Positions 7,725 to 49,581 of a DNA stretch of 64,000 nucleotides are shown in pieces. The position numbers and the translations under genes are program-made. Source of the DNA: a virus. Taxonomy: Duplodnaviria; Caudoviricetes. Numbering within the stretch: position 1 is the stretch's first letter; each line of letters opens with the position of its first letter. The DNA lies in IMG/VR virus record IMGVR_UViG_2930438282_000001, positions 17,042 to 81,041 of that record; one strand, given 5' to 3'. Below the pieces are notes generated by a model, which saw only the letters and a list, made by a program, of their open reading frames with translations, was not told the origin of the DNA and did no database searches.

Positions 7725-9173
7725 TCAGACGAACCAGGCTGCGAAGTTGGCCATAGACACGGCGGCGGCGTAGCAGCAGCGGCAGTACGGATGCGTCGGG
7801 AGCCGGGGCACGTCGAGCGTGTTCCAGGGGCTGCCGACTTCGTAGTCGGCGCAGATTGCGCAGACGCGGCCGTCGCCTGCGGTGATGACGTCGATCTGTC
7901 GGACGCCCTCGGCGCGGTAGAGACGCAGGGCGCCGTCGTCGGCGGCGGTGGTCATGGCCCAGTCGACGGTGAACGCGACCGCTTCGACGTCGGTGCTACC
8001 CAGGACGTCCATTGCGGCTTCGATCATCTCTTCGCGGGACGCACCTTCCTCAGCGGCCTCTGCGAGGGCCCTCCCGAGATCGGCGGTGGCCCGGTCGAGC
8101 ATGCGACCGAGCCAGCCGTCGGCGTTGCCCCACAGCTCGTCGAGGCGCGCGAGGGACTCGTAGGCGTCTTTGAATGCGATGTTCCAATCGAGGCCGACGA
8201 CGCTCGCGCGTTCGGCTGCGATCGCGACTGCGTTGACCATGCCCTCGGCGTTGCCTGCGGCGATGGCGTTCCGGATCGCGGTGCGTACGGCGGTCCAGCC
8301 GGTGAGGTCGGCGAGTGCGTGGAGCATGGCCCGGGCGGCGGCGAGGGCTTCGGTGAGGAAGTCTCGGGCGGCTTCGGAGAGTCCGGCGTGGCTGCGGAAA
8401 CGGTCGACCATGTCCGCGACCGCGGCCCGGTCGATGAGAGGCCGCCACGCTTCGGCGACGAGCCGGGTGTGCTCTGCCTGCTTCTCTTCGCGACGCTGGA
8501 AGAGGAGCGCCCACATGCCTTCGAGCTTCCCGAGGTCGATGGTGACTTCGAGAATGTGCGGGTCGTCGGCGCACTCGATGGCCGTGTGCATGGCCGCGGT
8601 GCTTGCCGCCTTCACCCGCTCGGTCATCGGACCGCCGGACAGCGCCCAACCGGCAGCGAACGCCTCTCGGGCTGGTGCGGCCATCGGGTGCTCGAGCGGG
8701 GTATCGGTGCGCTCGGTGCCGTGCACGGCGGACAGGGCGGTGAATTCGACGGATTGGCCGTCGAGTCGATCGAGCGGTGATGGCTCGTCCGGGTCAAGGT
8801 AGGTGATGGTGCAGTGCGCGGTGAAGCCGTGGTCGCGGGGCGGTTGAATGCCTCGCGCGTGTAGGGCGTCGAGAGTGTCCCTGCGTAGGTCCTCCAGGTC
8901 AGCGGAGTCGACGAGGGCAACGATGACGTCCTTCTCGCCCCCGGTGAACCGGGCGTGGCCAGCGATATGCGCGGTGATCGGCTGCCGTTCGGCGAGCTCG
9001 GCGACGACCTCTCGAATGGCGTCGCCATCGATGTCAGCCGCGTCCCCGCAGTAGGCGACGGTGACGTGCAGCTCGTCGGCCGGTAGTCCGTCCTTCACTG
9101 CCAGCGCTGCCGCCACGTCGGGGGGCGGGTAGAGGGCGATCATGCAGCCGTCGGAATAGTCCGGGGATGCCAT
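7725..9173 (-). CDS. 2H-phosphoesterase fused to MuF-like (gp7) head morphogenesis protein
   Basis: Two HxT motifs (LHVTVAY, AHCTITY); C-term DGRVCAIC...PTHPYCRC MuF signature; between portal and protease. Confidence 0.85.
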   Translation of the reverse strand: MASPDYSDGCMIALYPPPDVAAALAVKDGLPADELHVTVAYCGDAADIDGDAIREVVAELAERQPITAHIAGHARFTGGEKDVIVALVDSADLEDLRRDTLDALHARGIQPPRDHGFTAHCTITYLDPDEPSPLDRLDGQSVEFTALSAVHGTERTDTPLEHPMAAPAREAFAAGWALSGGPMTERVKAASTAAMHTAIECADDPHILEVTIDLGKLEGMWALLFQRREEKQAEHTRLVAEAWRPLIDRAAVADMVDRFRSHAGLSEAARDFLTEALAAARAMLHALADLTGWTAVRTAIRNAIAAGNAEGMVNAVAIAAERASVVGLDWNIAFKDAYESLARLDELWGNADGWLGRMLDRATADLGRALAEAAEEGASREEMIEAAMDVLGSTDVEAVAFTVDWAMTTAADDGALRLYRAEGVRQIDVITAGDGRVCAICADYEVGSPWNTLDVPRLPTHPYCRCCYAAAVSMANFAAWFV

Positions 9174-9189
9174 GCTCACCGCCTGTCGT

Positions 9190-20447: not shown

Positions 20448-21050
20448 GTGAATGGAATCAATTGGGGGGACGTCCCGACCTGGCTCGGGGCGATATTCGC
20501 GGCGCTGGCCGCCGCGGCGGCAGTGTGGACACTCAAGAGCCAGCGCGATCAAATCCGCGAGCAGCAGCGGTTCATCGGTGAGCAGCAGGCCACGATGGAT
20601 CTGGAACGCACCGAGCTGCGTGCGGTCGCTGAAGACCGGCGCACTGCACAGGCCAAGCGAGTCCGCATGCACCATCGGAAAGCGGGCGCGACGACCGACT
20701 GGCAAGGCGCGGAAGTCCCCGACGACCACTGGGTCGTCACAGTGGTCAACGAGAGTGACGTACCGATCCGCCAGGTCGAGGTGCATTTCGGGACCGCGCA
20801 CCGTGCCTCGGAAGTGCACGAGTGGCACTTGGGCTGGCACGAGTCTCGGACCGGTCAGGGCGAACGCTTGATGACACCGGTGCATCTCCTGGGGCCCCGC
20901 CGCGCGGCCGAGTTCCAGTCGCAGAGCTGGTCTCCGTCGACGGTGCACAACAACCCGCCGACGCTGTATTTCACAGACGGGGACGGCGGTCGCTGGTCGT
21001 TGGACTCGTCTGGCGATCTAAAGGAGTCGGAGCAGCAGCCAGGAATGTAG
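20448..21050 (+). CDS. Single-pass membrane protein (moron)
   Basis: NWGDVPTW + TM helix + coiled coil; TAATCT 6 nt before GTG. Confidence 0.75.
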   Translation: MNGINWGDVPTWLGAIFAALAAAAAVWTLKSQRDQIREQQRFIGEQQATMDLERTELRAVAEDRRTAQAKRVRMHHRKAGATTDWQGAEVPDDHWVVTVVNESDVPIRQVEVHFGTAHRASEVHEWHLGWHESRTGQGERLMTPVHLLGPRRAAEFQSQSWSPSTVHNNPPTLYFTDGDGGRWSLDSSGDLKESEQQPGM

Positions 21051-21059
21051 GCGTCCGGC

Positions 21060-21200
21060 TCAAATCGATGAGTTGAACGTCGTCGTCCGTACGACCGGAC
21101 GCGCCGGGGACCGCCTCGTCGTCGGCGCGGGTCGGACGGTCATCGCGGGGATCTGGTTGGAACGCACCGTCAGCACGGGCGTCGGCAGGGTGGAGGCCAT
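21060..21200 (-). CDS. 46-aa hypothetical
   Basis: RBS GAAAGGA before ATG. Confidence 0.45.
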   Translation of the reverse strand: MASTLPTPVLTVRSNQIPAMTVRPAPTTRRSPARPVVRTTTFNSSI

Positions 21201-21281
21201 GCTCTGTCCTTTCGGGAGAAAGATGACGGCCCCGCCGCGACGGGGATGCACGGCGGGGCCTCGGAGAGAGTGTGGCACGCG

Positions 21282-21464
21282 TCAGGTGGGTGGCAGGCCG
21301 AGCTCTTCGAACTCGCGCTGTACGTCGGCGGGGTCCATGCGGCCCTCGGCCAGCTCGCAGATCAGGCACACGGCGTGCCACGCGTCGCCGGTGGTCACGC
21401 CTTTCAGCGCGGCTGATATCCGCTTGATCAGTTCGATGCGGTCGGCTGTGCGGGCGTCGCTCAT
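21282..21464 (-). CDS. 60-aa hypothetical
   Basis: ATGA coupling with upstream gene. Confidence 0.6.
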   Translation of the reverse strand: MSDARTADRIELIKRISAALKGVTTGDAWHAVCLICELAEGRMDPADVQREFEELGLPPT

Positions 21465-21745
21465 CCGGTTTCCTCGGGCCCGCACCGGCATTCGTCGGCT
21501 GGCGCTCCCTGGCCGATCGCGCATGCACAGAAGATCGGGCCGAGTGGTCCGTCAACGGTCTCGCCGAAGCACATGTCGCACTCGCCCTCTTTCCATTCCC
21601 CGTCGCCTGGGCATTCGCATCCGCAGACGCAGCCCTGCCCACAGGAGCACTGACACATGCCTTCGCAGCAAGGCTCGGTGACGCCGAGAACGAGTTCACC
21701 GTCTTCGTCGTAGTCGGCACCCGGCACATAGCACTCGTCGATCAT
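21461..21745 (-). CDS. Cys-rich acidic metallothionein-like protein
   Basis: 16 Cys in 94 aa, CC/CxC clusters. Confidence 0.65.
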   Translation of the reverse strand: MIDECYVPGADYDEDGELVLGVTEPCCEGMCQCSCGQGCVCGCECPGDGEWKEGECDMCFGETVDGPLGPIFCACAIGQGAPADECRCGPEETG

Positions 21746-21750
21746 GCGGA

Positions 21751-21900
21751 TCAGTCCTCTGGGGTCTCGGTCACGGTCAGGTTTGGCCGGTACTTACGGA
21801 TTCGGCTGATCCGCTTCTCGGCAAAGTCGGGGGCGTTGGTGGTGAACTCGTCGAGGAACGTGCCGTCCTCGTCCAGGACGCGGTAACGGATGAACTCCAC
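21751..21900 (-). CDS. 49-aa hypothetical
   Basis: RBS AAAGGAGG before GTG; VEFIRYRVLDEDG. Confidence 0.6.
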   Translation of the reverse strand: MEFIRYRVLDEDGTFLDEFTTNAPDFAEKRISRIRKYRPNLTVTETPED

Positions 21901-21920
21901 GTGGCCTCCTTTGGTAGCGG

Positions 21921-22169
21921 TTAGCGGCCCCAGCAGTTCGCGAGGACCAGGGCGAGGAAGAAGAGGACGGCCCAGATCCAGCCGGAGGGGAGGATGCCGT
22001 CGCCGCGGGCCTGGGTGTGTACGGCGCGGACGCCGTCGCCGGCGTCCGGGGCGAGTCCTCCGTGTGCGGTGCGGCGGTGCTCCACCCCGTCGTCCTCGGC
22101 GTCCGACCGGCGTTCGTGGCGCTTGGGCGAGACGGCGTTGCAGGACCGGCAGTAGTACTCGTGTGGCAT
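21921..22169 (-). CDS. Small C2H2-like Zn protein with C-terminal TM helix
   Basis: CRSC...HRRTAH; WIWAVLFFLALVLA; RBS GGAAGGA. Confidence 0.65.
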   Translation of the reverse strand: MPHEYYCRSCNAVSPKRHERRSDAEDDGVEHRRTAHGGLAPDAGDGVRAVHTQARGDGILPSGWIWAVLFFLALVLANCWGR

Positions 22170-22240
22170 GGCGCGGTCCTTCCGGAGAGCGGGGTAGATC
22201 AGTCGTCTCCCGGGCGGGAGACGGATGGTAGACGTGCAGG

Positions 22241-22891
22241 TCAGACGGGCGGAGACGGGGCGGGAGATGAGGTGGGAGACGGAGCTCGGGAAGGGGCTTC
22301 GAGAGGGGCTCGACGCACCCCCCAGGTGGGAACTCCGGCCACCTTCACGTTGCGGTCGTGAGGGATACCGAGGGCGGTCAGACGAGTGCGCATATCCGTG
22401 ACCGTGCGGCCCTGCCACTGGCCGTGCTTCTGGAGGTGGGCGAGGACGGTCTTCAGGTGGACCTTGTCGGCGTCGCCCATGACGTCCAGGAGGAGTCGTC
22501 GGACTGCCTCTCGCTCGCTTCCCGGAGCTACGCCGGCTGTCTTGCGGGCCGGAGCGGAACGGCGCTCGATGACGGCGGCAGCGCGCTCCAAGATGTCGCC
22601 GGGGATGAAGGAGCCGACAGCGAGCAGCCACGCGAGGACGATGCCAGCGGCGACCCAACCGCCGTAGAAGCCGATCGCCCACACGGCGACGACGTACAGC
22701 CCCCAGGAGACACCTGAGCCGAAGCGGGCAGCGATCCACTGACCAGGGCCGAGGAGCCCGGTGAGGATCGGGCCGTGAGCGGCGGCTGGCGCCTCCTCGT
22801 CGGGCTCCTCTTCGATCTCCTCGGCCTGCTCCGCTTCGGAGGGTTCTGGCTCGTCCTCGGTGGCGCGTTTCCGCAGGTTGAAGAAGCTCAC
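22241..22891 (-). CDS. Membrane protein with C-terminal wHTH-like region
   Basis: 216 aa, 2 TM segments, GTGA coupled. Confidence 0.7.
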   Translation of the reverse strand: MSFFNLRKRATEDEPEPSEAEQAEEIEEEPDEEAPAAAHGPILTGLLGPGQWIAARFGSGVSWGLYVVAVWAIGFYGGWVAAGIVLAWLLAVGSFIPGDILERAAAVIERRSAPARKTAGVAPGSEREAVRRLLLDVMGDADKVHLKTVLAHLQKHGQWQGRTVTDMRTRLTALGIPHDRNVKVAGVPTWGVRRAPLEAPSRAPSPTSSPAPSPPV

Positions 22892-23292
22892 GACAGGTTC
22901 GCCCCCAAGTGGGCCACGGAGTCGGAGACGTAGGACCAGGTGCCGCCGGCGCCGGCAGCGATGTACCAGAAGAAGATCCCGAGGATGCCGACCTGCTTGG
23001 TGGTGAGCTTCTTGAACAGGATGAAAAGCGCAGTGGCGAGGGCCAAGGCGGGCATCGTCACACCGGGCAGAACGCCGTTGATCGTGCCGATGATGCTGCC
23101 GACGAAGTCGGGGACGATCTTGAAGATGCCTCCGGCAGCCTTGTACGACGATCCGGCGAGCATCGACAGGAACAGGGTCGGCCACCAGCCGAGGGGCCGC
23201 AGCTGACCGCCGCCGGGAATCCCGAAGATGAGCAGCACGGTGAGGACGAAGGCAAGGCCACCCGGGCCGAGATTTCCGAAGACGCTGTGCAC
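22888..23292 (-). CDS. Hydrophobic multi-pass membrane protein
   Basis: 134 aa, ~4 TM segments, RBS GAAGGA. Confidence 0.75.
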   Translation of the reverse strand: MHSVFGNLGPGGLAFVLTVLLIFGIPGGGQLRPLGWWPTLFLSMLAGSSYKAAGGIFKIVPDFVGSIIGTINGVLPGVTMPALALATALFILFKKLTTKQVGILGIFFWYIAAGAGGTWSYVSDSVAHLGANLS

Positions 23293-23308
23293 GGAGGGTC
23301 CTTCGGGG

Positions 23309-23989
23309 TTAGCGGCCAGTGCCGCTGTACAGCAGCACGCCGACGACGACGGATGAGACAGGAATGGCGGCGGCGCAGGTGACGAGCCAGAGGCCCCGTT
23401 TCCGCCCGACGCGATAGAGGGCGATCGCACATACGCCGAAGACGTAGATCACGAACGCTGACGGGCTGGTCCAGTGCCCTGCCCCGTACCAGGCGGCAGT
23501 GCTGGTGGCCCAGTCGACGAGCCCGATCCGCCAGCCCACGCCGGCCGCCGCGAGATGGCAGCCGAGCCACTTCAGCCGGTAAGGGACGCCGGACCAGGCA
23601 TCGACGAGAGCCTTACGCGGGTCAGAGGGCTTGGTGTCCCACGCCGACCGGGCCACGTCGGGCCCGGCCGGCTGCTTCCGACGGCGCCGCCTCTTTCGCG
23701 CCCTGCCCTTCCCCTTGCCCGGCTTGCGGCCCTCCTTCTTCGCGTTCCTCTCCGGGGCAGGCTCGGGATCCTCGTCGCCCGGGGCCTCGGCCGGTTCCTC
23801 GACCAGCTCAGGTGCGAGCTCGGCGGCCGACGTGGCGTTGCCGTCGAGGATGTTGTCGAGCCAGTCCCGCGGCCGCTGCTTCGGAATCGGAGGGATGACC
23901 GGCTGTTCGGCGTCCGGGCCGACGCCTCTCTGCTTCAGGAGTTTGGCGACACGGAGCTCGTCCGCGCCGGGTGTCGTACCGCCCATCAC
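23309..23989 (-). CDS. Membrane protein (3 C-terminal TMs)
   Basis: 226 aa, acidic/basic disordered N-term, coupled to upstream gene. Confidence 0.7.
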   Translation of the reverse strand: MMGGTTPGADELRVAKLLKQRGVGPDAEQPVIPPIPKQRPRDWLDNILDGNATSAAELAPELVEEPAEAPGDEDPEPAPERNAKKEGRKPGKGKGRARKRRRRRKQPAGPDVARSAWDTKPSDPRKALVDAWSGVPYRLKWLGCHLAAAGVGWRIGLVDWATSTAAWYGAGHWTSPSAFVIYVFGVCAIALYRVGRKRGLWLVTCAAAIPVSSVVVGVLLYSGTGR

Positions 23990-24435
23990 ACACCCCGCCC
24001 AGAGTTGTCGGACGGCGTGGGACGCGCGGAGGGGCCGGTCCTACCGGCGGGAAGCAGCGGGTACGACCGCGGAAGGCCGGTCGTGTCGTCGGGTGCGACC
24101 GTCGGACGCGGGGTCATGTGACCCGTCATACCGGTGTGATCAACCGTCGTCGGCATCCAGTACGCCTCAGGGACCGTCGTCTGCATGGAGCCGCGCTCGG
24201 GCGCCTGAGCTGGGTCATACCGTGTGAGGAAGTAGCGTGCGATCGTCGGACGCACGCCGTGCGGGAGCGTGGTGTGCTCCCACGCCTTCCGGTAGGTGCC
24301 AGCGACGATGCGCAGCGCGGATCGTACGGCGTCCGACACCGTCATACCGGTGGCAAGCATCGTCGTCAGATCGTCGTACAGTGCTTGATCAACTTTGACG
24401 GAGGCGTTCTTACCGACGGGCGGTGGCGTGGACAC
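23986..24435 (-). CDS. Hypothetical, RHH-like N-terminus
   Basis: ASVKVDQALYDDL..TVSDAVRSAL; RBS CAGGAG. Confidence 0.65.
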   Translation of the reverse strand: MSTPPPVGKNASVKVDQALYDDLTTMLATGMTVSDAVRSALRIVAGTYRKAWEHTTLPHGVRPTIARYFLTRYDPAQAPERGSMQTTVPEAYWMPTTVDHTGMTGHMTPRPTVAPDDTTGLPRSYPLLPAGRTGPSARPTPSDNSGRGV

Positions 24436-24458
24436 GGTGTGACTCCTGGTGTGACGGG

Positions 24459-25958
24459 TCAGCGGACGGGCAGGGCGATTTGCAGGGTGTCCTCGGTGTC
24501 CGGATCGATCAGCTTGGCGACGGGGATCGTCACGGTGTCGTCGTCAGGCAGCTCCGCCTTCGCGAGCCGGATAGTGGGCACGGCATCCGGCCCGGCCGCA
24601 GCGACCTCGACCGCGTCGCGCGTGCCCCACTTGCTGACCTTCCAGCAAGTGACCATCGCGTACAGGTGCATGGGCCGGAGGACGAACATCCGCCACAGGC
24701 CGGCCAAGGGCGCCAGGACCACGAGCCAGATGTGGAAGGCGAGCGGCTCGTCGTCGCGGGCGACCATGAGGAACCGCAGCGCGATCAGCCAGTTCATAAG
24801 CAGCGCGACCAGGAGCACCGACCAGATCAGCGTGCCGGCGTGCGCGCGCTGGACGGGGTCGGTGATGAGGGCGACGGGGATGACGATCGAGAGGAGCAGC
24901 TGCAGGAGCTCGGCGACGGGCATCCAGAATCCGGCGCCGGTGACGGGCATGTACTTGACCCACCAGAAGGTGCGGACGAACGTGCCGCGCATCCAGCGCA
25001 TGGACTGGTTGCGGTAGTGCTTCCAGGTCTCCGGGACCAGGGTGAACACGATGCTGGACGGCTGGTGCACGGTGTCGCCTTCGAGCATCGCGTACATCGT
25101 GAGCATCGAGTCGTCGTTCATCTGCATGGGCTGGCCGAGGAACTCCTCGTTCTCGTAGATACCGGCGTACTTGCGGACGACGTTGCCGTCGTAGAAGGCG
25201 AGGGTGCCGCTGTTGACCATGACCCGCTTGAGAACGGACTGGGCTGAGCGGAAGCCGCGGGTGAACGGGGTGTAGAGGATGCACAGCATCCGCGTGAGCA
25301 GGTTTGTCCGTGAGTTGAGGACGATCACGCATCCGGCGACGGACTTGACCTTGGCGTCCTTGAACGGCTTGAGGCCCTCGGCGACTGCCTCGCGGTCGAG
25401 GACGGAATCGGAGTCGAGGGTGACGAAGATGTCGCCCGGGTCGTCGGTGAGGACGTGCATCTGCGCGTGCCTCTTGCCGCGGTTCACGGTCCGGTCCCAC
25501 GTGGCGTAGATGCCGCGGCGTCGCGCCTCGTTGAGGAACCATGCCTTCGTCGCCGGGTAGGTGATCTGCGTCCCGGAGTCCTTGTCCTCACTGCCGTCGT
25601 CGACGACCCGGATCCGGTCGACCGGCCTGCTCTGGTCGAACACGGACTGCAGGCAGGCCCGGAGCGCCGGCTCGTCCTCGTTGTAGACGGGAACCTGGAC
25701 AGTGACGACGAGGGTGTCGAGGCGGCGCTGCTGCCGCTCGGTCGCTGTGATCGGTTTCTCCATCCAGCAGAGCGGGATCCACCAGAGCAGCAGGAAGGAG
25801 ACGAGCCACGCGAAGGCCATGCTGTTGCCGTGGCCGGTGAAGGCCACGGCCGTGGCGATGGCGTGCTCGATGGCCCACAGGGCGGCACCGAGCAGCGGCA
25901 CCGAAGCGAGAACGATGTTCCGTCTGTTGCCTGCCCACCAGGCGTGCGGGGCGGCCAT
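24459..25958 (-). CDS. Processive GT2 glycosyltransferase (hyaluronan synthase/NodC-like)
   Basis: VPVYNE, VDDGS, GKRHA, DSD, NDDSMLT, QSMRW (QxxRW); N- and C-terminal TM helices. Confidence 0.9.
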   Translation of the reverse strand: MAAPHAWWAGNRRNIVLASVPLLGAALWAIEHAIATAVAFTGHGNSMAFAWLVSFLLLWWIPLCWMEKPITATERQQRRLDTLVVTVQVPVYNEDEPALRACLQSVFDQSRPVDRIRVVDDGSEDKDSGTQITYPATKAWFLNEARRRGIYATWDRTVNRGKRHAQMHVLTDDPGDIFVTLDSDSVLDREAVAEGLKPFKDAKVKSVAGCVIVLNSRTNLLTRMLCILYTPFTRGFRSAQSVLKRVMVNSGTLAFYDGNVVRKYAGIYENEEFLGQPMQMNDDSMLTMYAMLEGDTVHQPSSIVFTLVPETWKHYRNQSMRWMRGTFVRTFWWVKYMPVTGAGFWMPVAELLQLLLSIVIPVALITDPVQRAHAGTLIWSVLLVALLMNWLIALRFLMVARDDEPLAFHIWLVVLAPLAGLWRMFVLRPMHLYAMVTCWKVSKWGTRDAVEVAAAGPDAVPTIRLAKAELPDDDTVTIPVAKLIDPDTEDTLQIALPVR

Positions 25959-26119
25959 CAGACGTCGCTCGGGGTCTTGCCGCGGCGGAAGCCGAAGCGG
26001 ACGCAGAGAGCGCCGACGAGGACGAGGCCGGCGGCGGCGCCGACGAGCCAGACCTGGTCGAGGACGACGCCGCCGATGGTGAGGGTGGCGCCGGTAGCGG
26101 CAAGAGAGCCGTAGTGCAT
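25958..26119 (-). CDS. 53-aa LAxTG sortase-signal-like micro-protein
   Basis: MHYGSLAATG + hydrophobic stretch + RFGFRRGK; RBS CAGGAG; TGATG overlap with GT2. Confidence 0.75.
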   Translation of the reverse strand: MHYGSLAATGATLTIGGVVLDQVWLVGAAAGLVLVGALCVRFGFRRGKTPSDV

Positions 26120-26207
26120 GGGTTGGTACTCCTGGATCGATCTATCGGGTGGGTGGTGCCGGGTCCGCAGTCGCGGGGAGACGCGCGGACCCGGCGGTCT
26201 GGGTGGG

Positions 26208-26408
26208 CTATTTGCGTGCCTGGCGGATGGCCGCGACGACGCTCGTGGTGAGGACGGTCAGGAAGAGGAGCGTCGACGAGCAGTCACTCGCGGGCTGGTT
26301 GTCGTACGAGGCGCGGTCCTGGACCTCGCGCATGGAGCGGCCGCGTTGCCGGTCGTGATGACGGTCGCTGCGGGGGCGGTGCCATTCCCCGCCGAAGGTG
26401 TCCGGCAT
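26208..26408 (-). CDS. 66-aa protein with C-terminal TM
   Basis: TGATG coupled; LLFLTVLTTSVVAAIRQARK. Confidence 0.6.
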   Translation of the reverse strand: MPDTFGGEWHRPRSDRHHDRQRGRSMREVQDRASYDNQPASDCSSTLLFLTVLTTSVVAAIRQARK

Positions 26409-26581
26409 CAGCGGCGCGCCCTTGCTTCCTGGGCGGCGAGGGTGGCACGGACGTCGGCGCCGGCCGCATAGTCGCCGGCGCAGTTCTCGACTGTGGCCGC
26501 CTCGGCCAGGATCGGATTCGGGCGCGGCGCAAGGGGCGCGGGGGTGGGCTGGGGTAATGGCTGATCGGTACGCTCAGTCAT
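26408..26581 (-). CDS. 57-aa hypothetical
   Basis: MTERTDQPLPQPTPAPLAPRPNP...ARARR*, first gene of the GT2 operon. Confidence 0.55.
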   Translation of the reverse strand: MTERTDQPLPQPTPAPLAPRPNPILAEAATVENCAGDYAAGADVRATLAAQEARARR

Positions 26582-26612
26582 GCCTGCCTGCTTCGTGGAG
26601 TTGAAGGTGGGC

Positions 26613-26650
26613 GCCCCGGCCCATATGGAGTGGCGACTCCGGGCCGGGGC
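26613..26650 (-). other. Leader hairpin with 4-nt bulge
   Basis: GCCCCGGCCC/GGGCCGGGGC plus GGAGT/ACTCC. Confidence 0.5.
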
Positions 26651-26686
26651 TTGTTGTTGGAAGAGACCGGGGTGGCCTCCAGAGCC

Positions 26687-26732
26687 AAGCTAAACCCCGG
26701 GGTTGAGGCGGCGCAACCCCGGGGTTTAGGCT
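26687..26732. promoter_or_regulatory. Divergent promoters with twin palindromic operators
   Basis: Perfect 16-bp inverted repeat CTAAACCCCGGGGTTG-N8-CAACCCCGGGGTTTAG; TTGAGG-18-TAGGCT (+) and TTGCGC-18-TAGCTT (-). Confidence 0.75.
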
Positions 26733-26765
26733 CATGTCGGCCGCACCGCAGGAAGGAGCGCGGGA

Positions 26766-27077
26766 GTGGCAGACGAACCCCAGCAGCCTGAGGAGGTGCA
26801 GCGCCTGGTGGAAGCCATCAAGGCGTTCGAGGCCATCGAGGACGACGAGGCGTGCGCCGTCGCCGTGTCACAGGCGCTGAAGGACTGGCCCGACCACCAG
26901 GTCGCCCTCCGGGAACTGCGCCAGCAACGCGTCCAAGCGCTGAAGGCTCAGGGCAAGACCTGGGAGGAGATCGGCCGGCTCCTTGGCGGGATCACCGCTG
27001 CACGCGCCCAGCAGATCGGGGCGGGCGTGAGCGGGGCACAGCGACGCAAGGCCGCCAAGCAGGAGACCGCGGAGTAA
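26766..27077 (+). CDS. HTH transcriptional regulator
   Basis: GKTWEEIGRLLGGITAARAQQI; RBS GGAAGGAG; divergent from GT2 operon. Confidence 0.8.
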   Translation: MADEPQQPEEVQRLVEAIKAFEAIEDDEACAVAVSQALKDWPDHQVALRELRQQRVQALKAQGKTWEEIGRLLGGITAARAQQIGAGVSGAQRRKAAKQETAE

Positions 27078-27079
27078 CA

Positions 27080-27568
27080 GTGGACGATCTCGTGAAGTGG
27101 TTCGGCGCCCAGCTCGACGAGGATGAGCGGATCGCGCGGGCGGCCTCCTGGACTGATGACGCGAACGCCTGGCACGCCGAGCCTTCGCCCTTCGGTGCCC
27201 GGGATGCGGGACAGCGCTGGTACATCGAGGACGCGATAGACGACGGTGTGGTCTCGCACGTCGATCCGGCCGCCTCCGACCATGAGGGCGTTGCGCGGCA
27301 CATCGCGGAGTGGGATCCGGCGCGGGTGCTGCGCGAGATCGATTCGAAGCGCCGCGTCCTCGGCGTGTACGCCTCCGCCCTCAAGGACCGTGCAGCGCTC
27401 CGTGACCGTATGCGTGAAGTGGTCGATTCGGATCCGGACGAGTTCTACCGACTCCACCGTCAGGAGAGCGATCTCATTGGGCGGGCGCGGCAGCTGGGTC
27501 CGATAGTGCGCCTGCTCGCGCTGCCGTACGCGGACCGGCCGGGCTACCTCGACGACTGGAGACTGTGA
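27080..27568 (+). CDS. DUF6221-like protein
   Basis: LDEDERIAR...RHIAEWDPARVLREIDSKR...LALPYADRPGY. Confidence 0.8.
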   Translation: MDDLVKWFGAQLDEDERIARAASWTDDANAWHAEPSPFGARDAGQRWYIEDAIDDGVVSHVDPAASDHEGVARHIAEWDPARVLREIDSKRRVLGVYASALKDRAALRDRMREVVDSDPDEFYRLHRQESDLIGRARQLGPIVRLLALPYADRPGYLDDWRL

Positions 27569-27571
27569 GCC

Positions 27572-28222
27572 GTGGCCATAGAAATGGGAGACTGGGCCGG
27601 TTGGGTAGGCGGGGTCGCCGGCGTTGCCGCCTTCGTGACGAGCATCTTCGGCGTTGTGAAGTCGAGCGACGCGAATCGGATCGCTCGGCAGGCGAACGCC
27701 AAGAGCGACCAGTCGAACAACATCGCCCGCGAATCTAACGACCTTGCCACCGAAGCTAACCAGATCGCCGAGGCGGCGAACGGCATTGCCCGAGAGGCAA
27801 ATGACCTCGCTCACCGCCAGGAACGACGCAGCACCGAGAGCCATGCCGTGCAATGGGACGGCAGCTGGATCGGACCCGGGCAGTTTGCCCTTGACTGTCG
27901 TGGATCGAGCGTTGCGTGGAATGTTGTTGCCCGTGTGACCGTCGACGGCGAGGAGGCCGTAGTCGAGCGCGAGCGAGTCGTAGCCCCCGACCGTCTCATC
28001 TTTGACTTCCCCGCGGCCCGTCGCGCGTTGGAACGAGAGAGGCGGGAATACGCCGAGGCTCGGCGCGCCAGCTCATCCGCGCTATACGGTGCGGTGGTCG
28101 TGGACGAACTGCGCTTCCGAAACCACAGCATCGAGGAGTGGGTGCATTGGAAGACGGAGACATCAGCGCCGAAGGAGCACCACGAAGTGTGGCGCCTAGC
28201 CACACTAGGTGACCTTGGCTAG
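27572..28222 (+). CDS. Single-pass membrane protein with heptad repeats
   Basis: GDWAGW + TM; ANxIAxx 7-aa repeats. Confidence 0.7.
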   Translation: MAIEMGDWAGWVGGVAGVAAFVTSIFGVVKSSDANRIARQANAKSDQSNNIARESNDLATEANQIAEAANGIAREANDLAHRQERRSTESHAVQWDGSWIGPGQFALDCRGSSVAWNVVARVTVDGEEAVVERERVVAPDRLIFDFPAARRALERERREYAEARRASSSALYGAVVVDELRFRNHSIEEWVHWKTETSAPKEHHEVWRLATLGDLG

Positions 28223-28321
28223 GGGGCGGCAGGCATCCGTCTGTGGCAGCCCGTGAAGCCCCGCGGTGTCCCGGTGTCCGGGGCGGACTCCATGTCAGTG
28301 CTCCGGGCTATGGTCCAAGAC

Positions 28322-28807
28322 ATGAATTGGGGAAATGCGCCCGCATGGACGGCGCTTGTGCTTTCGGGTGGTGCCTTGTGGGTCAGCATCAAGGCGCGTG
28401 GGGATGGCAAGAGGTCGGCTGACGCTGCAGCTACGTCGGCATCGGCCTCGGTCCGCTCGGCCGTGGCTGCGGAAGGGGCGCTGGCTCTGCAGCAGCAAGA
28501 GACTGCGGAGCGGCGCGCGGCCGAGGCTGAAGCTGCGCGACCGCGGCCGTCGCTCGTTGTGAAGCACTTCGAGAAGCAGCTGTACCACTTGATCAATGAG
28601 GGCCATGCTCCAGCGGAAGACGTCAGGTTCGCTGGTGAGTTGCCGGCATCAGTGATGGACGCACCCGTCGGAGTCACGCTCGGTCCGGGCGATGTGCATC
28701 CGTTTTTCATCGCGCCGGACTTCGACTCGCCCAGCATTGCGGTGCTCAAGGTCTCGTGGGAGGGGCTGGACGAGCCGGTGTCGCTTCGGGTTCCGTCGGC
28801 ACGCTGA
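28322..28807 (+). CDS. Single-pass membrane protein (moron)
   Basis: MNWGNAPAW + TM + Ala-rich coil; TATGGT 7 nt before ATG. Confidence 0.7.
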   Translation: MNWGNAPAWTALVLSGGALWVSIKARGDGKRSADAAATSASASVRSAVAAEGALALQQQETAERRAAEAEAARPRPSLVVKHFEKQLYHLINEGHAPAEDVRFAGELPASVMDAPVGVTLGPGDVHPFFIAPDFDSPSIAVLKVSWEGLDEPVSLRVPSAR

Positions 28808-28891
28808 ACTCGCACGCCATCACCTCCTCAAAACCTTCACAAGCTGACGTGTCGTGAGCCACACTGGTTCACTCAGATTTGAGGGGGGACG

Positions 28892-29206
28892 ATGAGCAAT
28901 CCGTACATCAATGCGCCTATCCGGGCCCGCATGTACTCATCCACGCTGCACAAGGTGATCTGGGTCGTCGTCGTTGTGGCGTCAGCCGGCCTGCTGGCGC
29001 CTCCGTTGTTCTTCATCGCGGCGAAGAAGCGGGTCGTCGCCATGTACGTGCCTGCGCTCTACGCCGTGTTCGCCTGGGGGACGCCGATCGTCGCGTCCAT
29101 CGTCGGAAACGCAAAGAACTGGTCAGGCGGCGTACTGGCGTTCACGATGATCACCGCGGCCGTCCACGCGGCAATCCTGGACATCGACTGGAAGTCCGGT
29201 CGGTAG
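28892..29206 (+). CDS. Small 3-TM membrane protein
   Basis: 104 aa hydrophobic; RBS GAGGGGG. Confidence 0.75.
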   Translation: MSNPYINAPIRARMYSSTLHKVIWVVVVVASAGLLAPPLFFIAAKKRVVAMYVPALYAVFAWGTPIVASIVGNAKNWSGGVLAFTMITAAVHAAILDIDWKSGR

Positions 29207-29224
29207 ACCGGAGAGGGGGCTGTC

Positions 29225-29347
29225 GTGATTGGGCTTGCGATCTCGATGGTGCGGCTGACGCTGCGCCTGACCTTCGGGATGATCGACATGATGTTCTGGG
29301 CGTGCACTCTTGGGAAGGTCGATCCGCGGACGCGCAGGTTCGTGTGA
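29225..29347 (+). CDS. 40-aa hydrophobic peptide
   Basis: VIGLAISMVRLTLRLTFGMIDMMFW...; G-rich RBS. Confidence 0.4.
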   Translation: MIGLAISMVRLTLRLTFGMIDMMFWACTLGKVDPRTRRFV

Positions 29348-29444
29348 AGCGCTGACCTTTCGTGGCCCAGGCGGGTTCCCGTATCCCGACGGCTGCCGTC
29401 GCAACCGGCTCTTCCGGGTCACCGCGCTCAGAGTGCCAGAACGC

Positions 29445-29483
29445 CTGAGGGCCCGGCCGGTCTCATCCCGGTCGGGCCCTCAG
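29445..29483. terminator. 16-bp hairpin between convergent units
   Basis: CTGAGGGCCCGGCCGG/CCGGTCGGGCCCTCAG. Confidence 0.6.
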
Positions 29484-29639
29484 AGTTTGTGCGCCGCCCG
29501 GCTGTTCGCCGACTGTTCTCGGGTACCCGGGTTTCCTCCGGGCAGACGGGTGGCTGGTGCGGGGTCTCGTATCCCAACGCCACGTCCGTCCACGAGACCC
29601 CGCCAGCTCAGGATGCCAGAAGATCGGGGTCGGCCCGTG

Positions 29640-36566: not shown

Positions 36567-36760
36567 TGGGTCGTGTCCTCGGTCGGGCCGATGTACAGGA
36601 AGGCGAAGAGGGCTTGCTGAAGTTCGAAGAGGTCGCGGCCCGATGTGATCTCCGAGTAGCCGTGCTCTTTCAGGACTTTGGCGATGTCGAGCGCGAGCCC
36701 GAGCGTGAAGCGGGAGTCTTCGTGCGGCCGCGGCCGGATGGGGTATTGGCGCTCGTTCAC
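36563..36760 (-). CDS. 65-aa hypothetical
   Basis: GTGA/ATGA coupled. Confidence 0.6.
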   Translation of the reverse strand: MNERQYPIRPRPHEDSRFTLGLALDIAKVLKEHGYSEITSGRDLFELQQALFAFLYIGPTEDTTQ

Positions 36761-38550
36761 CGGGCTACCGCCTGGGGGAATTCGCGCACCTGGAGGTGGC
36801 GTGGCCAGTAGTCGGGGTTGCTGCCCTTGGTGTCGCCGTGGCGAGCGGCTGCCGACTGCTTGGGGTCGCGAGCCCAGGCGGAGCCAAGCTGCTTGACGAA
36901 AACAGAGGTCTCCGCGTGCTGGCATTGCCGAACGAGGTCGGCGGCCCACTCGACTTCCATCGGACGGGCGCCGGGTCCGGACTCGCCGCCGGCGATGACC
37001 CAGTCGATGCCGCGGGCTTCGGCTCGGGTGCGGGAGCCGAAGGAGGTGTACGCGTACTCCCGCTTCGGATCGTTGTCGAGGACCAGGCGGCCGATGTTGT
37101 TCCAGCAGTGCACGTACCGGCCGAGGACCTGGGGCGGGGTGGGGCCGAAGCCGTCGTCCATGCGGAGGGTGGCGCCGAACGGGGGCGCGCCCTGCTGGTG
37201 CATGTCCCGGATCCAGTGCCGGGGCGAGCGGCCCCATTCCTCGGTCCAGAACTCCTCGATCCGGAGGCGGACGTCAGCGGGCACCCAGTCGGGCCACGTC
37301 CACTTCGCCCAGGTGGCCGGGGCCTGGTCGGCCGGCACCGGGGCGATCGGCGGCATCCACCGGGTGAGATCGACGGGGCCGAGGAGCGGTTCGCACGACA
37401 GGAAGCGGACGGCAGCCGGCGTTTCGACGAGGGCCGGGATGCGGAGGTCGGCGCGCTGCTGGTCCTCGACGGACACGCCCAACCAGACTCCGGGCAGAGG
37501 CCACTGGAACTCGGCGGCTGCGATGTCGCGCCACTGTCGGCCCTGGGCGATGTTGGACACCTGCGTGTCTGAAATGCCAAATTCTTTGGCGAGCGCTGTC
37601 CTCGACTCGCCGGCCGCAGCCCTGCCCTTGATCTGCCGGGACTGTTCTTCGCTCAACTTCGAGTACGAGCGGCGGTTGCCGTGCCGCTTCCGGTCATCCC
37701 AGTTCACTTCCTGCGTGCCCCACCGCAAGTTCGGCAGAGCGTTGTTGGTTGCATCTCCATCGATGTGGCATCCCTGCTCGCCGCGATCCGCAGCCCGGTC
37801 GAAGGCAGCCAGCACCAGCCTGTGGACGAGCTCCCGGTGGACCTCGCCGTCTCGGTAGAGCGTCACCCTCTGATGGCCTTGTTCACCGGTGTCCGGGCTC
37901 ATACGACGCCGGGTGTCAGCGGGCTCGGTCCAACGGCCCATCTTCTTCTCGTAGGCCGCCTTCTGACGGCAGGTTCCGGAGCAGTAGCGCCGCCGCGCCT
38001 CGGCCTCAGCGGGCAGAGAGCCTTGGCACCAGAGGCAAGAGTCGCTGCCGCGGATCGTGTAAACGTGCCCGTAGTCCGACACCAGGTATCCCGGGTATCC
38101 GGGGGCAGCCACGACTTTCTCCGCGCCCATGGCCTCGATCTGGAGCCGGACTTGGAGGACGTCTACTTGGCGGCGAACCTCGCCGACGAACTCGGAGGAG
38201 TTCATCAGCGACCGCATGCGGCCGTGGCGTTTGGTGAGGATCTGGTAGGTGTGCTGGGGCGTCAACGCCATGATCGCGAAGGCGCGGGCGATGTGGTCGT
38301 CGGGGATGTCCTTGTGGAATAGGTCGGACATCGAGTTGACGAACACGCGGCGCGGCTTTCGCCACTTCAGCGGGAGCGTCAGCCGCTCGGGCCGCAGGGT
38401 CAGGTCGAAGCCGTTCTCGAAGTGGTGGCCGGCTGTGCCGCGGAACCGCTCGGAGAACGTCTCGGCGTAGCAGTTGTCGCAGCCCGGGGAGACTTTCGTG
38501 CAGCCGGTGACGACGTTCCAGACCTGATCGGTCCATTCGATCTTCGTCAC
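36757..38550 (-). CDS. DUF5131 (gp37/gp68, radical-SAM-like) with in-frame HNH insertion
   Basis: TKIEWTD, GCTKVSPGCDNCYA, FVNSMSDLFH, WLGVSVE, FLSCEPLLG, DWVIAGGESG, FVKQLG; 597 aa. Confidence 0.9.
   Translation of the reverse strand: MTKIEWTDQVWNVVTGCTKVSPGCDNCYAETFSERFRGTAGHHFENGFDLTLRPERLTLPLKWRKPRRVFVNSMSDLFHKDIPDDHIARAFAIMALTPQHTYQILTKRHGRMRSLMNSSEFVGEVRRQVDVLQVRLQIEAMGAEKVVAAPGYPGYLVSDYGHVYTIRGSDSCLWCQGSLPAEAEARRRYCSGTCRQKAAYEKKMGRWTEPADTRRRMSPDTGEQGHQRVTLYRDGEVHRELVHRLVLAAFDRAADRGEQGCHIDGDATNNALPNLRWGTQEVNWDDRKRHGNRRSYSKLSEEQSRQIKGRAAAGESRTALAKEFGISDTQVSNIAQGRQWRDIAAAEFQWPLPGVWLGVSVEDQQRADLRIPALVETPAAVRFLSCEPLLGPVDLTRWMPPIAPVPADQAPATWAKWTWPDWVPADVRLRIEEFWTEEWGRSPRHWIRDMHQQGAPPFGATLRMDDGFGPTPPQVLGRYVHCWNNIGRLVLDNDPKREYAYTSFGSRTRAEARGIDWVIAGGESGPGARPMEVEWAADLVRQCQHAETSVFVKQLGSAWARDPKQSAAARHGDTKGSNPDYWPRHLQVREFPQAVAR
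37520..38130 (-). mobile_element. NUMOD4-Zn finger-HNH-HTH homing endonuclease module within DUF5131 (approximate ends)
   Basis: PGYPGYLVSDYGHV; VHRLVLAAF..CHIDGDATNNALPNLRWGTQEVN; SKLSEEQ..LAKEFGIS. Confidence 0.8.
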
Positions 38551-38939
38551 GCGGTCACCGCCGTGCGAGTGCAGGGCCAGGGTTCGGCGCGGGTGATCTC
38601 GCCTGAGTCGTTGATCTCGGAGTGCGTGACGCAGATTGCAGACACCTTGACCCCCTGGCAGTAGCCGGACGCGTCGAGCTCGTGGCCGCACTCCATCTCC
38701 ACGCACAGGGCGTCCCCGCCGATGGCCGTCACTGGCCGGCAGGCGGGTTCGGGTGCGGTCGGCGCGCAGTTGGGGCACTCGCGTCGGACGTCCGGCAGTG
38801 GGCCACCGTTGATCGCGAGGTTCATCTCCTGGTCGGTGATGTCTCCGAGGAGTTCGCTGCAGCCGTTGCAGGCCCGTTTCGTTTTGATCGTTGTCGAGCC
38901 GTCCTCGTTGACCCGGTCCGGGGTGTTCGGGCGCGTCAC
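38547..38939 (-). CDS. Cys-rich hypothetical
   Basis: 130 aa, multiple CxxC, coupled. Confidence 0.65.
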   Translation of the reverse strand: MTRPNTPDRVNEDGSTTIKTKRACNGCSELLGDITDQEMNLAINGGPLPDVRRECPNCAPTAPEPACRPVTAIGGDALCVEMECGHELDASGYCQGVKVSAICVTHSEINDSGEITRAEPWPCTRTAVTA

Positions 38940-48269: not shown

Positions 48270-48422
48270 TTACAGCCAGTCGTCGAGGACGAGTTCGCCG
48301 AACCAGATGAGGCAGGCGATGATCACGCCGACGCCGACCGTCCAGTACGTGTTCGCGCCGGCCGCGTAGGCGATTCCGGACCCGGCCGCCCCGAAGACAA
48401 GGCCGAGCGCGAACCGGTTCAC
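48270..48422 (-). CDS. 50-aa 2-TM membrane protein
   Basis: GTGA coupled to vWA gene. Confidence 0.6.
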   Translation of the reverse strand: MNRFALGLVFGAAGSGIAYAAGANTYWTVGVGVIIACLIWFGELVLDDWL

Positions 48423-49153
48423 CGGAGGACGCCTGCAGCGGTCGCTGCAGCGAGCCAGCCGGCGTACTCGTGAGTGATGCCGTCGTAGAGCTGCTCGTCG
48501 GTGGTGCGGTATGGGTCCCGGACGTGGAAGAAGGAGGCGTTGTCGACGGTCCGGCCGCGCAGGTCGTCGAGCTTCTCCAGGAACTTCACCCGGTCGCCGA
48601 AGCCGACGAATGCGAAGTGGAGGCCGTACCGGGACGCCTCACGAAGTGCGGCTTCCGCGTCTCGCCGAGAGTCCGGCTCTCCGTCCGTCTGGAAGATCAC
48701 CAGCCCCGGGCTTGTGTTCCCGGCGTGGAGGTCGACGACGTAGTCGATGGCCCGGGCGTAGTCCGTCGAACCCCAGGAGATGCTGGAGTGGGTGCGGTTG
48801 ATGACGCCCTGGTACGAGTCCAAGCGCACGGATTCGGCCTGGTTGACGTGAGAGCCGAAGTAGGTGAGGGGCACGATCCCGTCGTCGTCGAGGTTCGCGG
48901 ACAGGCCGAGGGCCTGCTCGGCGAGGCGCTGCACGCTGCCGTTGGCATAGAAGCCATGCATGCTGCCGGAGTGGTCGAGGACCAGGTACACAGCGGCGCG
49001 CTGACCGGTCAGCCCGTACTTGTCCAGGGACACGGCGGCGGTCTTCGTCAGGCTGACCAGCCCGGACGGGACCTTGTCCAGGCTGATTGCCGGTCCTTGG
49101 CCTGTGGGCGACGGCACGGCCACCGGGCTGGTGTCCTTACGGAAGAGACTCAT
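48419..49153 (-). CDS. vWA domain protein (TerF-like vWA)
   Basis: LVLDHSGSM MIDAS motif, GSTDY, FQTDGEP, VDNASFF. Confidence 0.88.
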   Translation of the reverse strand: MSLFRKDTSPVAVPSPTGQGPAISLDKVPSGLVSLTKTAAVSLDKYGLTGQRAAVYLVLDHSGSMHGFYANGSVQRLAEQALGLSANLDDDGIVPLTYFGSHVNQAESVRLDSYQGVINRTHSSISWGSTDYARAIDYVVDLHAGNTSPGLVIFQTDGEPDSRRDAEAALREASRYGLHFAFVGFGDRVKFLEKLDDLRGRTVDNASFFHVRDPYRTTDEQLYDGITHEYAGWLAAATAAGVLR

Positions 49154-49581
49154 GTGATCTGTGCTCCTTGAGGGTTGGCCGTGCACCGGGTGTGGTGCTC
49201 GGTCTCGATGTGCTGGGCGAAGCGCGCGACCTGGTCGCCGCTGGCGCTCTCGATGTCGCCGCAGGCCGGGCAGACGTAATCGGCCGTCGGAATGCGGATC
49301 CACTTGCCGCGGGAGTCCTGCTGGCCCGGGTCGAGACGGATCCCCGGCTGCGGCCCAGGACCATGTCCGACCGCGGCCTGAGCAGACGGGTGGGAATCGC
49401 TGGGCAGACCCGGTGTCGTCCATGTGCTGGCGGGCGGCCCAGGTCCGGGCTTCGGCTCGGGAAGGCCTTGTGCCGCCCACGGCGAATGCCCGTTACACTT
49501 CCAGCCGTTGGCGTAGAAGCGGACGCTCCCCGTGTGCTCGTCGGCCGGGACGTCGCACGGCTCCGGATCGCGGCTGCTCAT
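49150..49581 (-). CDS. Hypothetical with C-terminal C2H2-like motif
   Basis: 143 aa, coupled. Confidence 0.6.
   Translation of the reverse strand: MSSRDPEPCDVPADEHTGSVRFYANGWKCNGHSPWAAQGLPEPKPGPGPPASTWTTPGLPSDSHPSAQAAVGHGPGPQPGIRLDPGQQDSRGKWIRIPTADYVCPACGDIESASGDQVARFAQHIETEHHTRCTANPQGAQIT

Follow-up and report, generated by a model that had tools for sequence, protein, structure and literature searches.

Why would a bacteriophage carry its own polysaccharide synthase, and what is the very small protein encoded directly in front of it? The locus that raises these questions lies in a 64-kb stretch of DNA (64,000 nucleotides, G+C about 68%; hereafter the window) taken from the 81-kb IMG/VR provirus record IMGVR_UViG_2930438282_000001, which has a completeness rating of 94%. 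A minus-strand operon in the window encodes a predicted membrane glycosyltransferase of family GT2 and, overlapping its start, a 53-residue protein (the micro-protein) with a motif that resembles a sortase sorting signal. An earlier sequence-only reading had proposed that nine genes of this operon form a single self-regulated envelope system, which would act in receptor masking, superinfection exclusion or prophage spread. We compared the locus with its relatives and found that the operon is a mosaic, in which a two-gene cassette of micro-protein and GT2 is inserted into a backbone block. Our best explanation, to which we assign a probability of roughly 0.55, is a mosaic phage operon with a mobile GT2/micro-protein cassette that is tied to glycan synthesis and to the sortase pathway. 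The two cassette genes are as follows.

25958-26119, minus strand: p53 micro-protein, 53 amino acids (aa), third-position G+C (GC3) 0.91, 1-nt overlap with the GT2 start.
24459-25958, minus strand: GT2, 499 aa, predicted membrane-embedded, processive enzyme of the HasA/NodC/chitin-synthase class.

The micro-protein and the GT2 are encoded as a pair well beyond this phage. We used pattern scans to collect 80 loci in species-representative genomes and three in IMG/VR, which together with phage Kromp make 84; all were picked by GT2 similarity (at least 52% identity), Kromp excepted. A tblastn search found the micro-protein in 73 of the 84 loci, and a profile hidden Markov model (HMM) placed it directly upstream of the GT2 gene in 83. 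At the exception, L007, the GT2 gene starts about 100 bases from the contig end. The pair extends to distant GT2s (36-42% identity) in Kromp, on two Pseudonocardia plasmids and on two Streptomyces plasmids; in Kromp, gp78 is the micro-protein (58% identity) and gp79 the GT2 (42% identity). Neither Bacillus hasA nor the Actinomyces oris homologue was seen to have a micro-protein gene upstream. Searching 1.84 billion representative sequences with the micro-protein profile returned 151 matches at E up to 0.001. Among the 150 matches listed, none is a fusion; nearly all stand alone at about 53 aa, and the median length is 54 aa. In the PLSDB gene tables, the small gene carries the label 'hypothetical protein' on each of the five actinomycete plasmids examined for the pair. 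The pair is widespread and unstudied in actinomycetes: the open full-text literature, with subscription journals outside this scope, yielded no paper on it, in agreement with the earlier impression that the system had not been described, and none on a phage HAS/NodC-like synthase in Streptomyces.

Sequence and structure comparisons both assign the GT2 to the HasA/NodC class, as had been proposed from its motifs. The protein exceeds the Pfam cut-offs for PF00535 (59.5 bits; cut-off 23.3), PF13632 (52.6; 27) and PF13641 (49.9; 27), and its best NCBIfam model is NodC (1.5e-39). It also matches Chlorella virus hyaluronan synthase (HAS; 4e-13), Xenopus hyaluronan synthase and Bacillus HasA (31.6% identity over 87%, E 9e-41). 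VDDGS, DSDS, NDDS, Q318xxRW322 and W444GTR447 are invariant or nearly so among 40 aligned relatives. The predicted catalytic residues are D120/D121, D182/D184, D282/D283, Q318...R321 W322 and W444 G445 T446 R447, and the WGTR lines up with that of Chlorella virus HAS. An AlphaFold (AF2) model built on 40 relatives (mean pLDDT 80.7) has helices at residues 11-39, 46-66, 312-336, 342-366, 374-398 and 406-436, and transmembrane segments (TMs) are also predicted by hydropathy. The top 13 Foldseek matches of this model are all hyaluronan synthases (best E 4.7e-18), with an alignment of 471 columns against the 497-residue 7sp7 chain. The GT2 alone thus spans the whole HAS architecture, and the micro-protein is therefore not a split-off piece of the synthase.

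The likeness to known synthases has limits. Class I hyaluronan synthases (Chlorella virus HAS 7sp7, HasA) and NodC are, like the window GT2, single polypeptides with N- and C-terminal TMs and the same motifs, and the chlorovirus enzyme shares with it the property of being virus-encoded. The window GT2 differs from HAS and NodC in sequence (about 20-32% identity) and reaches no curated equivalog cut-off, scoring 136.1 bits against 550 for NodC (TIGR04242) and 66.2 bits (2.5e-18) against 422.3 for PgaC/IcaA (TIGR03937). Unlike HAS systems, the window clade has no linked hasB or hasC. Processive HAS/NodC-type synthases are generally regarded as self-sufficient, and we know of no class I hyaluronan synthase or NodC that needs a micro-protein partner. 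Gtr seroconversion offers a parallel, being based on prophage-borne glycosyltransferases, and the window enzyme too would alter the host surface. It is unlike GtrA/GtrB/GtrC in that it is a predicted polymer synthase, not a bactoprenol glucosyltransferase; the original view that the module is not Gtr-like still stands, since Pfam and NCBIfam searches of the module proteins revealed no GtrA, GtrB or GT-C family.

The micro-protein looks like a bare sortase sorting signal. It comprises an uncharged five-residue N-terminal tail, LAATG at residues 6-10, a hydrophobic stretch at residues 15-44 and a basic RFGFRRGK segment at residues 41-48. The family consensus is MxYGS...LAxTG...W...(hydrophobic)...RxxFRRG(K/R), and at least 90% of 40 relatives retain Tyr3. 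Of the 84 family members, 73 have LAxTG, compared with 0.8 expected from shuffles of residues 2-24. The window protein shares a motif at position 6 with 16 others, 56 have it at position 12 or 13, and a few have it elsewhere; because its position differs between members, the motif has been kept while its place in the alignment changed. The wider family behaves similarly. L[AP]xTG is found in 104 of the 150 representatives, against 1.6 expected and a maximum of 6 in 300 shuffles, and the second motif position in distant representatives is A or P only. In representatives of up to 62 aa, the motif is preceded by a median of 6 residues (range 4-19). Overall, the motif is enriched about 65- to 90-fold over shuffles.

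Curated models of sorting signals recognize part of the family. At E up to 10, TIGR01167 (LPXTG_anchor) picks out 20 of 40 members (best E 0.0013), and two of the 11 relatives that were scored pass its cut-off of 15.9 bits (L017, 18.1 bits; L066, 16.6 bits). The small proteins of NF058583 (LAXTG_small_WW) resemble the micro-protein in being stand-alone and about 54 aa long, with a Gly/Ala-rich N-terminal tail, LAxTG, a TM and a basic tail. This model weakly matches 34 of 40 relatives (best E 7.2e-8), the highest of the 11 scored singly reaching 25.1 bits; no protein above its cut-off was found in five pair-carrying genomes or in 301 sampled genomes of the class.

Class E sortases in Streptomyces recognise LAXTG (PMC8225981). 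On the Pseudonocardia plasmids pFRP1-1 (L119:1828-4464) and pBCI2-2 (L122:1828-4596), a 55-aa LAYTG micro-protein is encoded with a coupled GT2, and a class E sortase gene divergently adjoins the pair on both of the plasmids examined. A direct genomic link to a sortase was found on these plasmids only. The LAxTG statistics, the relatives that pass TIGR01167 and the Pseudonocardia neighbours together bear out the sortase-type signal that the sequence-only reading had proposed.

Small LAxTG proteins also accompany GT2s of another type. At L090:3-1647, L091:3-1695 and L099:1501-3119, they lie upstream of GT2s matching the XrtP-associated family NF053846; the L099 enzyme scores 629 bits (cut-off 520), and the partial open reading frames (ORFs) of L090 and L091 score 215 and 208. 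At L090 and L091, the small protein shares one operon with the membrane GT2, and a 201-aa exosortase-R-like protein is encoded between them. The neighbour at L099 is a PVV-CTERM 'choice-of-anchor G' protein. The window is unlike these XrtP/XrtR loci in that it has no exosortase gene and its GT2 is HAS/NodC-like, not of the XrtP-associated type. The occurrence of LAxTG small proteins with XrtP-associated-type GT2s elsewhere makes the combination of a tiny sorting-signal protein and a membrane GT2 a recurring actinomycete design.

Several observations weigh against our reading of the pair. LAxTG is absent from 11 of the 84 members, mostly in the Nonomuraea clade, and the motif is missing from 46 of the 150 representatives. 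The window micro-protein lacks a signal peptide and a passenger domain, and with just five residues before LAATG it is therefore not a conventional sortase substrate. It gave no match to TIGR01167 and falls short of NF058582 (14.5 bits; cut-off 27) and NF058583 (7.9 bits; cut-off 65). Neither the window nor the 6 kb around any of the 84 main-family loci contains a sortase gene, and the two Pseudonocardia plasmids are related, so that they count as roughly one event. The micro-protein HMM was built from the same 84 loci on which it was run, and because the sequences are related, the pairing and motif counts are not independent events.

Many of these points suit an alternative that we consider possible but doubtful, in which the micro-protein is a small TM subunit or activator of the synthase, the LAxTG-like motif is a Gly/Ala/Thr-rich juxtamembrane segment and sortase is uninvolved. 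IcaAD and PgaCD provide the analogy: in each, a small membrane protein encoded beside a processive GT2 acts as its partner, IcaD for IcaA and PgaD for PgaC. Strict adjacency and the frequent start/stop overlap are what a stoichiometric partner would predict, and the members without the motif, the missing signal peptide and passenger domain and the lack of sortase genes near the main-family loci are all compatible with a subunit. The window differs from IcaAD and PgaCD in that its small partner is encoded upstream, is shorter and is sorting-signal-like, and in its PgaC_IcaA score (66 versus 422 bits). A simple juxtamembrane segment also accounts poorly for the enrichment of the motif over shuffles, for a second position occupied solely by A or P, both of which sortases accept, and for a motif retained while shifting between two alignment positions. 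The class E sortase gene that abuts the pair in Pseudonocardia argues in the same direction, as do the other actinomycete LAxTG small proteins that adjoin exosortase-like genes and GT2s.

The safest statement about the predicted product is that it is a beta-glycan containing N-acetylglucosamine (GlcNAc). Neighbouring genes give some hints. On the Streptomyces plasmids L120:2747-6018 and L123:2750-6015, the genes for a 66-aa LAQTG micro-protein and a GT2 precede a gene of the UDP-glucose/GDP-mannose dehydrogenase family, a layout that resembles hasA-hasB. The Actinomyces oris homologue lies after a polysaccharide deacetylase gene. Two points here also count against our reading: the plasmid dehydrogenase suggests a uronic-acid, hyaluronan-like polymer in that clade, and the window clade (84 loci, 6 kb) has no UDP-glucose dehydrogenase or deacetylase neighbour. 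Because this dehydrogenase is absent from the window clade, UDP-GlcNAc alone could suffice as substrate. This would fit a second alternative, that the GT2 makes short chitooligosaccharides like NodC, which would act as a diffusible signal and not as a surface coat. We regard this as improbable. NodC is indeed the top-scoring NCBIfam model, but the score of 136 bits lies below the NodC cut-off, the fold matches are full-length, polymer-translocating hyaluronan synthases, no nodA, nodB or nltIJ-type neighbour is conserved, and a membrane partner with a sorting signal better suits a wall-associated product. A nodBC-nltIJ operon is described from Frankia and other actinobacteria (PMC4447401); we rejected a nod-type operon of this kind because the pair has no conserved third neighbour.

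The remaining genes on the same strand have a different history. Their products, in the direction of transcription, are as follows.

26408-26581, minus strand: p57, Pro/Ala-rich, promoter-proximal, 57 aa, coding status uncertain.
26208-26408, minus strand: p66, tail-anchored small membrane protein, 66 aa, GC3 0.90, one C-terminal TM at residues 43-61.
23986-24435, minus strand: p149, 149 aa, phrog_16946 at 6e-14, possible ribbon-helix-helix (RHH) N-terminus.
23309-23989, minus strand: p226, 226 aa, Pro/charge-rich N-terminus and C-terminal TM helices (hydropathy).
22888-23292, minus strand: 134-aa Gly/Ala-rich polytopic membrane protein, GC3 0.89, phrog_38677 at 1.5e-29.
22241-22891, minus strand: 216-aa membrane protein, homologue of Kromp gp85 and VWB gp26.
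21921-22169, minus strand: p82, 82 aa, C7xxC10...H31xxxxH36 and a C-terminal TM.
21282-21900, minus strand: three more small ORFs of 49 aa, 94 aa (Cys-rich) and 60 aa.

Genes were called from an ORF listing with our own heuristic on third-position G+C, and two listed ORFs were shortened. The listed 180-aa ORF (p180) starts too early, since its match to phrog_38677 begins at residue 47, giving a real protein of 134 aa. The listed 314-aa ORF (p314) is over-extended; 216 aa fits the 197-aa Kromp gp85 and homologues of 190-260 aa. Overlaps of 1 or 4 bases occur at four of the eight operon junctions (p57/p66, p53/GT2, p149/p226 and p134/p216), and the others are gaps of 16 to 88 nt. The same-strand run extends to about 21282, beyond the left border drawn by the sequence-only reading.

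Outside phage Kromp, none of these genes accompanies the cassette at the 84 loci. Across the 84 GT2 loci, tblastn found p314 and DUF6221 (encoded beyond the divergent regulator, see below) in Kromp only and did not find p57, p66, p149, p226, p180 or p82; the regulator itself (HTH103) matched Kromp gp74 by blastp only. Clustering about 1000 neighbouring ORFs gave no further gene in more than 18 loci and no conserved third gene. We also built a quick maximum-likelihood tree of 81 GT2 sequences, with the long Kromp branch as root and three truncated rows left out. In this tree the chromosomal copies fall into genus clusters, with one change for Nonomuraea and two each for Actinomadura and Nocardiopsis, and they lie among genes of ordinary metabolism (oligopeptide ABC transporter, LysR regulator, GH3, SDR). 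The window GT2 groups with L002, L004, L003, L082-L084, L074 and L056 with moderate support (SH-aLRT 81-88). At L002, L004 and L082-L084 the neighbours are phage-like (WhiB, vWA-TerF-like, Bro-N, CI-like repressor, RNA ligase, PNKP), and the downstream genes vary between these loci.

Conversely, the backbone block usually occurs alone. The 216-aa protein has 120 homologues, all unnamed and mostly in Streptomyces. We sampled 15 Streptomyces genome loci with such a homologue: homologues of Kromp gp83, gp84 and gp85 stand in a row in 13, an HTH103 or DUF6221 homologue is nearby in 11, and a full DUF2637 homologue of Kromp gp82 is present in four. Micro-protein and GT2 were found in one of the 15, the Kromp-like prophage L105. 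L107 has homologues of p57 (62%) and p82 (74%) and no cassette. The presence of the cassette in just one of 15 backbone loci and its absence from L107 mark it as an optional insertion in a conserved operon. The Kromp region gp73-gp85 has the same layout as the window, with gp78/gp79 as the pair and gp85 as the homologue of the 216-aa protein. The VWB region gp24-gp26 resembles the window through gp26 and differs in having no GT2 match. In both phages all of these genes are annotated as hypothetical except the glycosyltransferase and a 'sigma factor'.

That all nine genes form one self-regulated envelope system, coating hyphae or a peptide carrier, now seems quite unlikely: they do share one strand with short gaps or overlaps, and Kromp and L105 keep the order HTH / small genes / micro-protein / GT2 / membrane proteins, but across the 84 loci only the 53-aa gene follows the GT2, the downstream genes of the phage-clade loci (L002, L004, L082-L084) are quite different, the membrane block lacks a GT2 in 14 of 15 loci and L107 has the outer genes without the cassette. 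By the refuting condition that it had set itself, the sequence-only reading largely fails on this point, since no neighbour other than the 53-aa gene is conserved together with the GT2.

The operon faces a divergently transcribed gene for a helix-turn-helix (HTH) protein across a pair of palindromes.

26690-26729: twin dyad, putative operators, AACCCCGGGGTT twice, about 37 nt upstream of the HTH start.
26766-27077, plus strand: HTH protein, 103 aa, sigma-70 region-4-like by homology.
27080-27568, plus strand: DUF6221 protein (PF19730 at 2.9e-27), homologue of Kromp gp73, predicted co-transcription with the HTH gene.

Exact copies of AACCCCGGGGTT occur in the 64-kb window at 26693 and 26715 only, 22 bp apart centre to centre, inside the 184-nt divergent intergenic region. 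The 103-aa protein has no Pfam match of its own. It is 34% identical to Kromp gp74 (blastp E 1.8e-6), which passes Sigma70_r4 PF04545 (27.3 bits; cut-off 24.1). L105 has AACCCTAGGGTT twice, with the same 22-bp spacing and conserved flanks, beside an HTH protein 78% identical to that of the window, and AACCCTAGGGTT differs from AACCCCGGGGTT by a symmetric change that preserves the palindrome. At the corresponding site beside its 34%-identical HTH protein, Kromp carries another twin dyad, TGTGTAG-N5-CTACACA. This covariation of operator and HTH protein in the window, L105 and Kromp supports the earlier proposal that the dyads are cognate operators of the divergent HTH protein, which is probably an operator-binding regulator and would bind both dyads. 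The L105 prophage (L105:442-6414) is Kromp-like, with a GT2 93% identical to Kromp gp79, yet it carries window-type operators and the 78%-identical HTH protein. From this mixture we conclude that the regulator/operator unit is exchanged independently of the operon.

The backbone proteins themselves are mostly unnamed. In the AF2 model (pLDDT 78.8), the 216-aa protein begins with an acidic, disordered segment, continues with TM helices and ends in a domain of the order a1-b1-a2-a3-b2-b3. This predicted cytoplasmic domain is winged-helix-like, its fold matching winged-helix regulators weakly (E 0.28 or higher); searches for the protein gave no plasmid match, only unnamed Atlas clusters and no PDB fold match below E 0.28. 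p226 is the positional analogue of Kromp gp83 (weak blastp, E 0.006), and p149 resembles the C-terminal part of Kromp gp82 (blastp E 0.002). Pfam, NCBIfam and PDB sequence searches returned no match for p149, and its RHH label, taken solely from the nearest named Atlas clusters (RHH families at 0.86), is a lead only. p82 may bind zinc through its Cys and His residues; the L107 homologue (74% identical) has kept the two Cys and the two His. The coding statistics of p57 are weak (G+C at the three codon positions, GC123, 0.76/0.64/0.78), no ribosome-binding site is obvious, and p57 homologues are in L107 (62%), L111 and L113, all three without a GT2. No homologue of p66 was found among the 84 GT2 loci or the membrane-block loci. 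The Cys-rich 94-aa protein (21461-21745, minus strand) has runs of CxC and CxxC and no family match, and a homologue sits after the gp85-like gene in L112.

VWB gp24 and Kromp gp82 are DUF2637 proteins, and the window has no DUF2637 domain. DUF2637 homologues occur on 341 actinomycete plasmid records, 324 of them from Streptomyces, and once beside a type IV coupling protein (T4CP)-type gene and a MobF relaxase. In this case, L117:5028-9027 on a 34-kb S. chartreusis plasmid, the DUF2637 protein is encoded directly upstream of the coupling-protein-like gene with the relaxase near, and it shares 67% identity with VWB gp24 over the N-terminal half of the phage protein. The arrangement hints that part of the phage membrane block descends from a DNA-transfer system. 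Because the window lacks the domain, a role of the block in spread or a conjugation apparatus remains a lead. A search of the open full-text literature on DUF2637 returned nothing relevant.

The wider window is that of a prophage, as had been claimed. Most genes are on the minus strand, including those for the tail tube, capsid, portal, an Ant antirepressor and many small proteins, and an integrase gene completes the picture of a provirus that IMG/VR rates 94% complete.

62215-63435: tyrosine integrase.

The host is likely Streptomyces-like, as the closest relatives of the studied genes are in Streptomyces. The sequence-only reading had placed the minus-strand ORFs correctly, had recognised the LAATG micro-protein, the membrane proteins and the GT2 motifs among their products, and had rightly noted the twin palindromes beside the divergent HTH gene. 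Behind the HTH and DUF6221 genes, a plus-strand block (27572-29350) encodes a 216-aa TM and repeat-rich protein, a 184-aa protein and a polytopic membrane protein of 104 aa; these genes could be expressed in the lysogen. PADLOC gave no match to the module and a single marginal LeoBC match (E 8.6e-4) to the 216-aa plus-strand protein at 27572-28222. An Rfam scan of 20500-29500 found nothing close to a gathering score, a sigma-70 promoter scan found 0 sites, and terminator-like sites were at chance level (3 versus 2.8). Further away on the minus strand, a 673-aa protein (36757-38778) matches DUF5131 (243-position profile, 4.6e-83) in two separated stretches and might be interrupted by an insert, for instance an intein. 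Among the structural genes, 7725-9179 (minus strand) encodes a 484-aa protein with a 2'-5' RNA ligase superfamily domain. A vWA-TerF-like protein is encoded at 48419-49480 (minus strand), and the same family occurs near the cassette in L004.

How might the cassette work? Gene layout, enzyme class, the pairing, the mosaic make-up and the operator/HTH covariation are what the comparisons show; on top of these we infer a glycan product, a topology for the micro-protein, processing by sortase and an envelope or anti-phage effect, and would combine them as follows. The operon would be controlled from the divergent promoter, with the two dyads probably read by the neighbouring HTH protein. The GT2 would polymerise a beta-linked, GlcNAc-containing glycan from UDP-GlcNAc, possibly together with UDP-glucuronic acid (UDP-GlcA), and extrude it onto the hyphal surface through a transmembrane channel of its own. 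Translational coupling would ensure that the micro-protein is made in a fixed proportion to the GT2. The micro-protein would sit N-out, C-in in the membrane, with LAATG at the outer face, and would be an obligate partner of the synthase, most likely tying the synthase or its product to wall attachment by a host class E sortase. p149, p226, the 134-aa and 216-aa proteins and p82 form a separate backbone block of this phage group, which would work with or without the cassette.

A more specific version, which we consider a long shot, is that the micro-protein is a peptide primer or anchor. The synthase would start or attach its chain on the N-terminal peptide, the class E sortase of the host would cut LAAT|G, and the peptide-glycan would be linked covalently to peptidoglycan; the Tyr3-bearing peptide and the glycan would be threaded outward beside the TM helix of the micro-protein. 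If true, this would be a previously unknown, sortase-dependent way of fixing exopolysaccharide to a Gram-positive wall, borrowed by phages to re-coat their host.

Independently of that version, a whole synthase lineage is tied to a protein of about 53 residues that resembles a bare signal, with at least 151 micro-protein clusters at the 50% identity level, and a gene this small is easily missed in annotation. Among actinophages and proviruses, several that are unrelated to one another have a cassette lineage of their own, in parallel with the chloroviruses, which encode a hyaluronan synthase. This suggests that phages remodel the Streptomyces surface, for example for exclusion, adsorption control or developmental manipulation. 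The pair offers a minimal two-gene system in which to study the connection between glycan synthesis and cell-wall sorting in actinomycetes.

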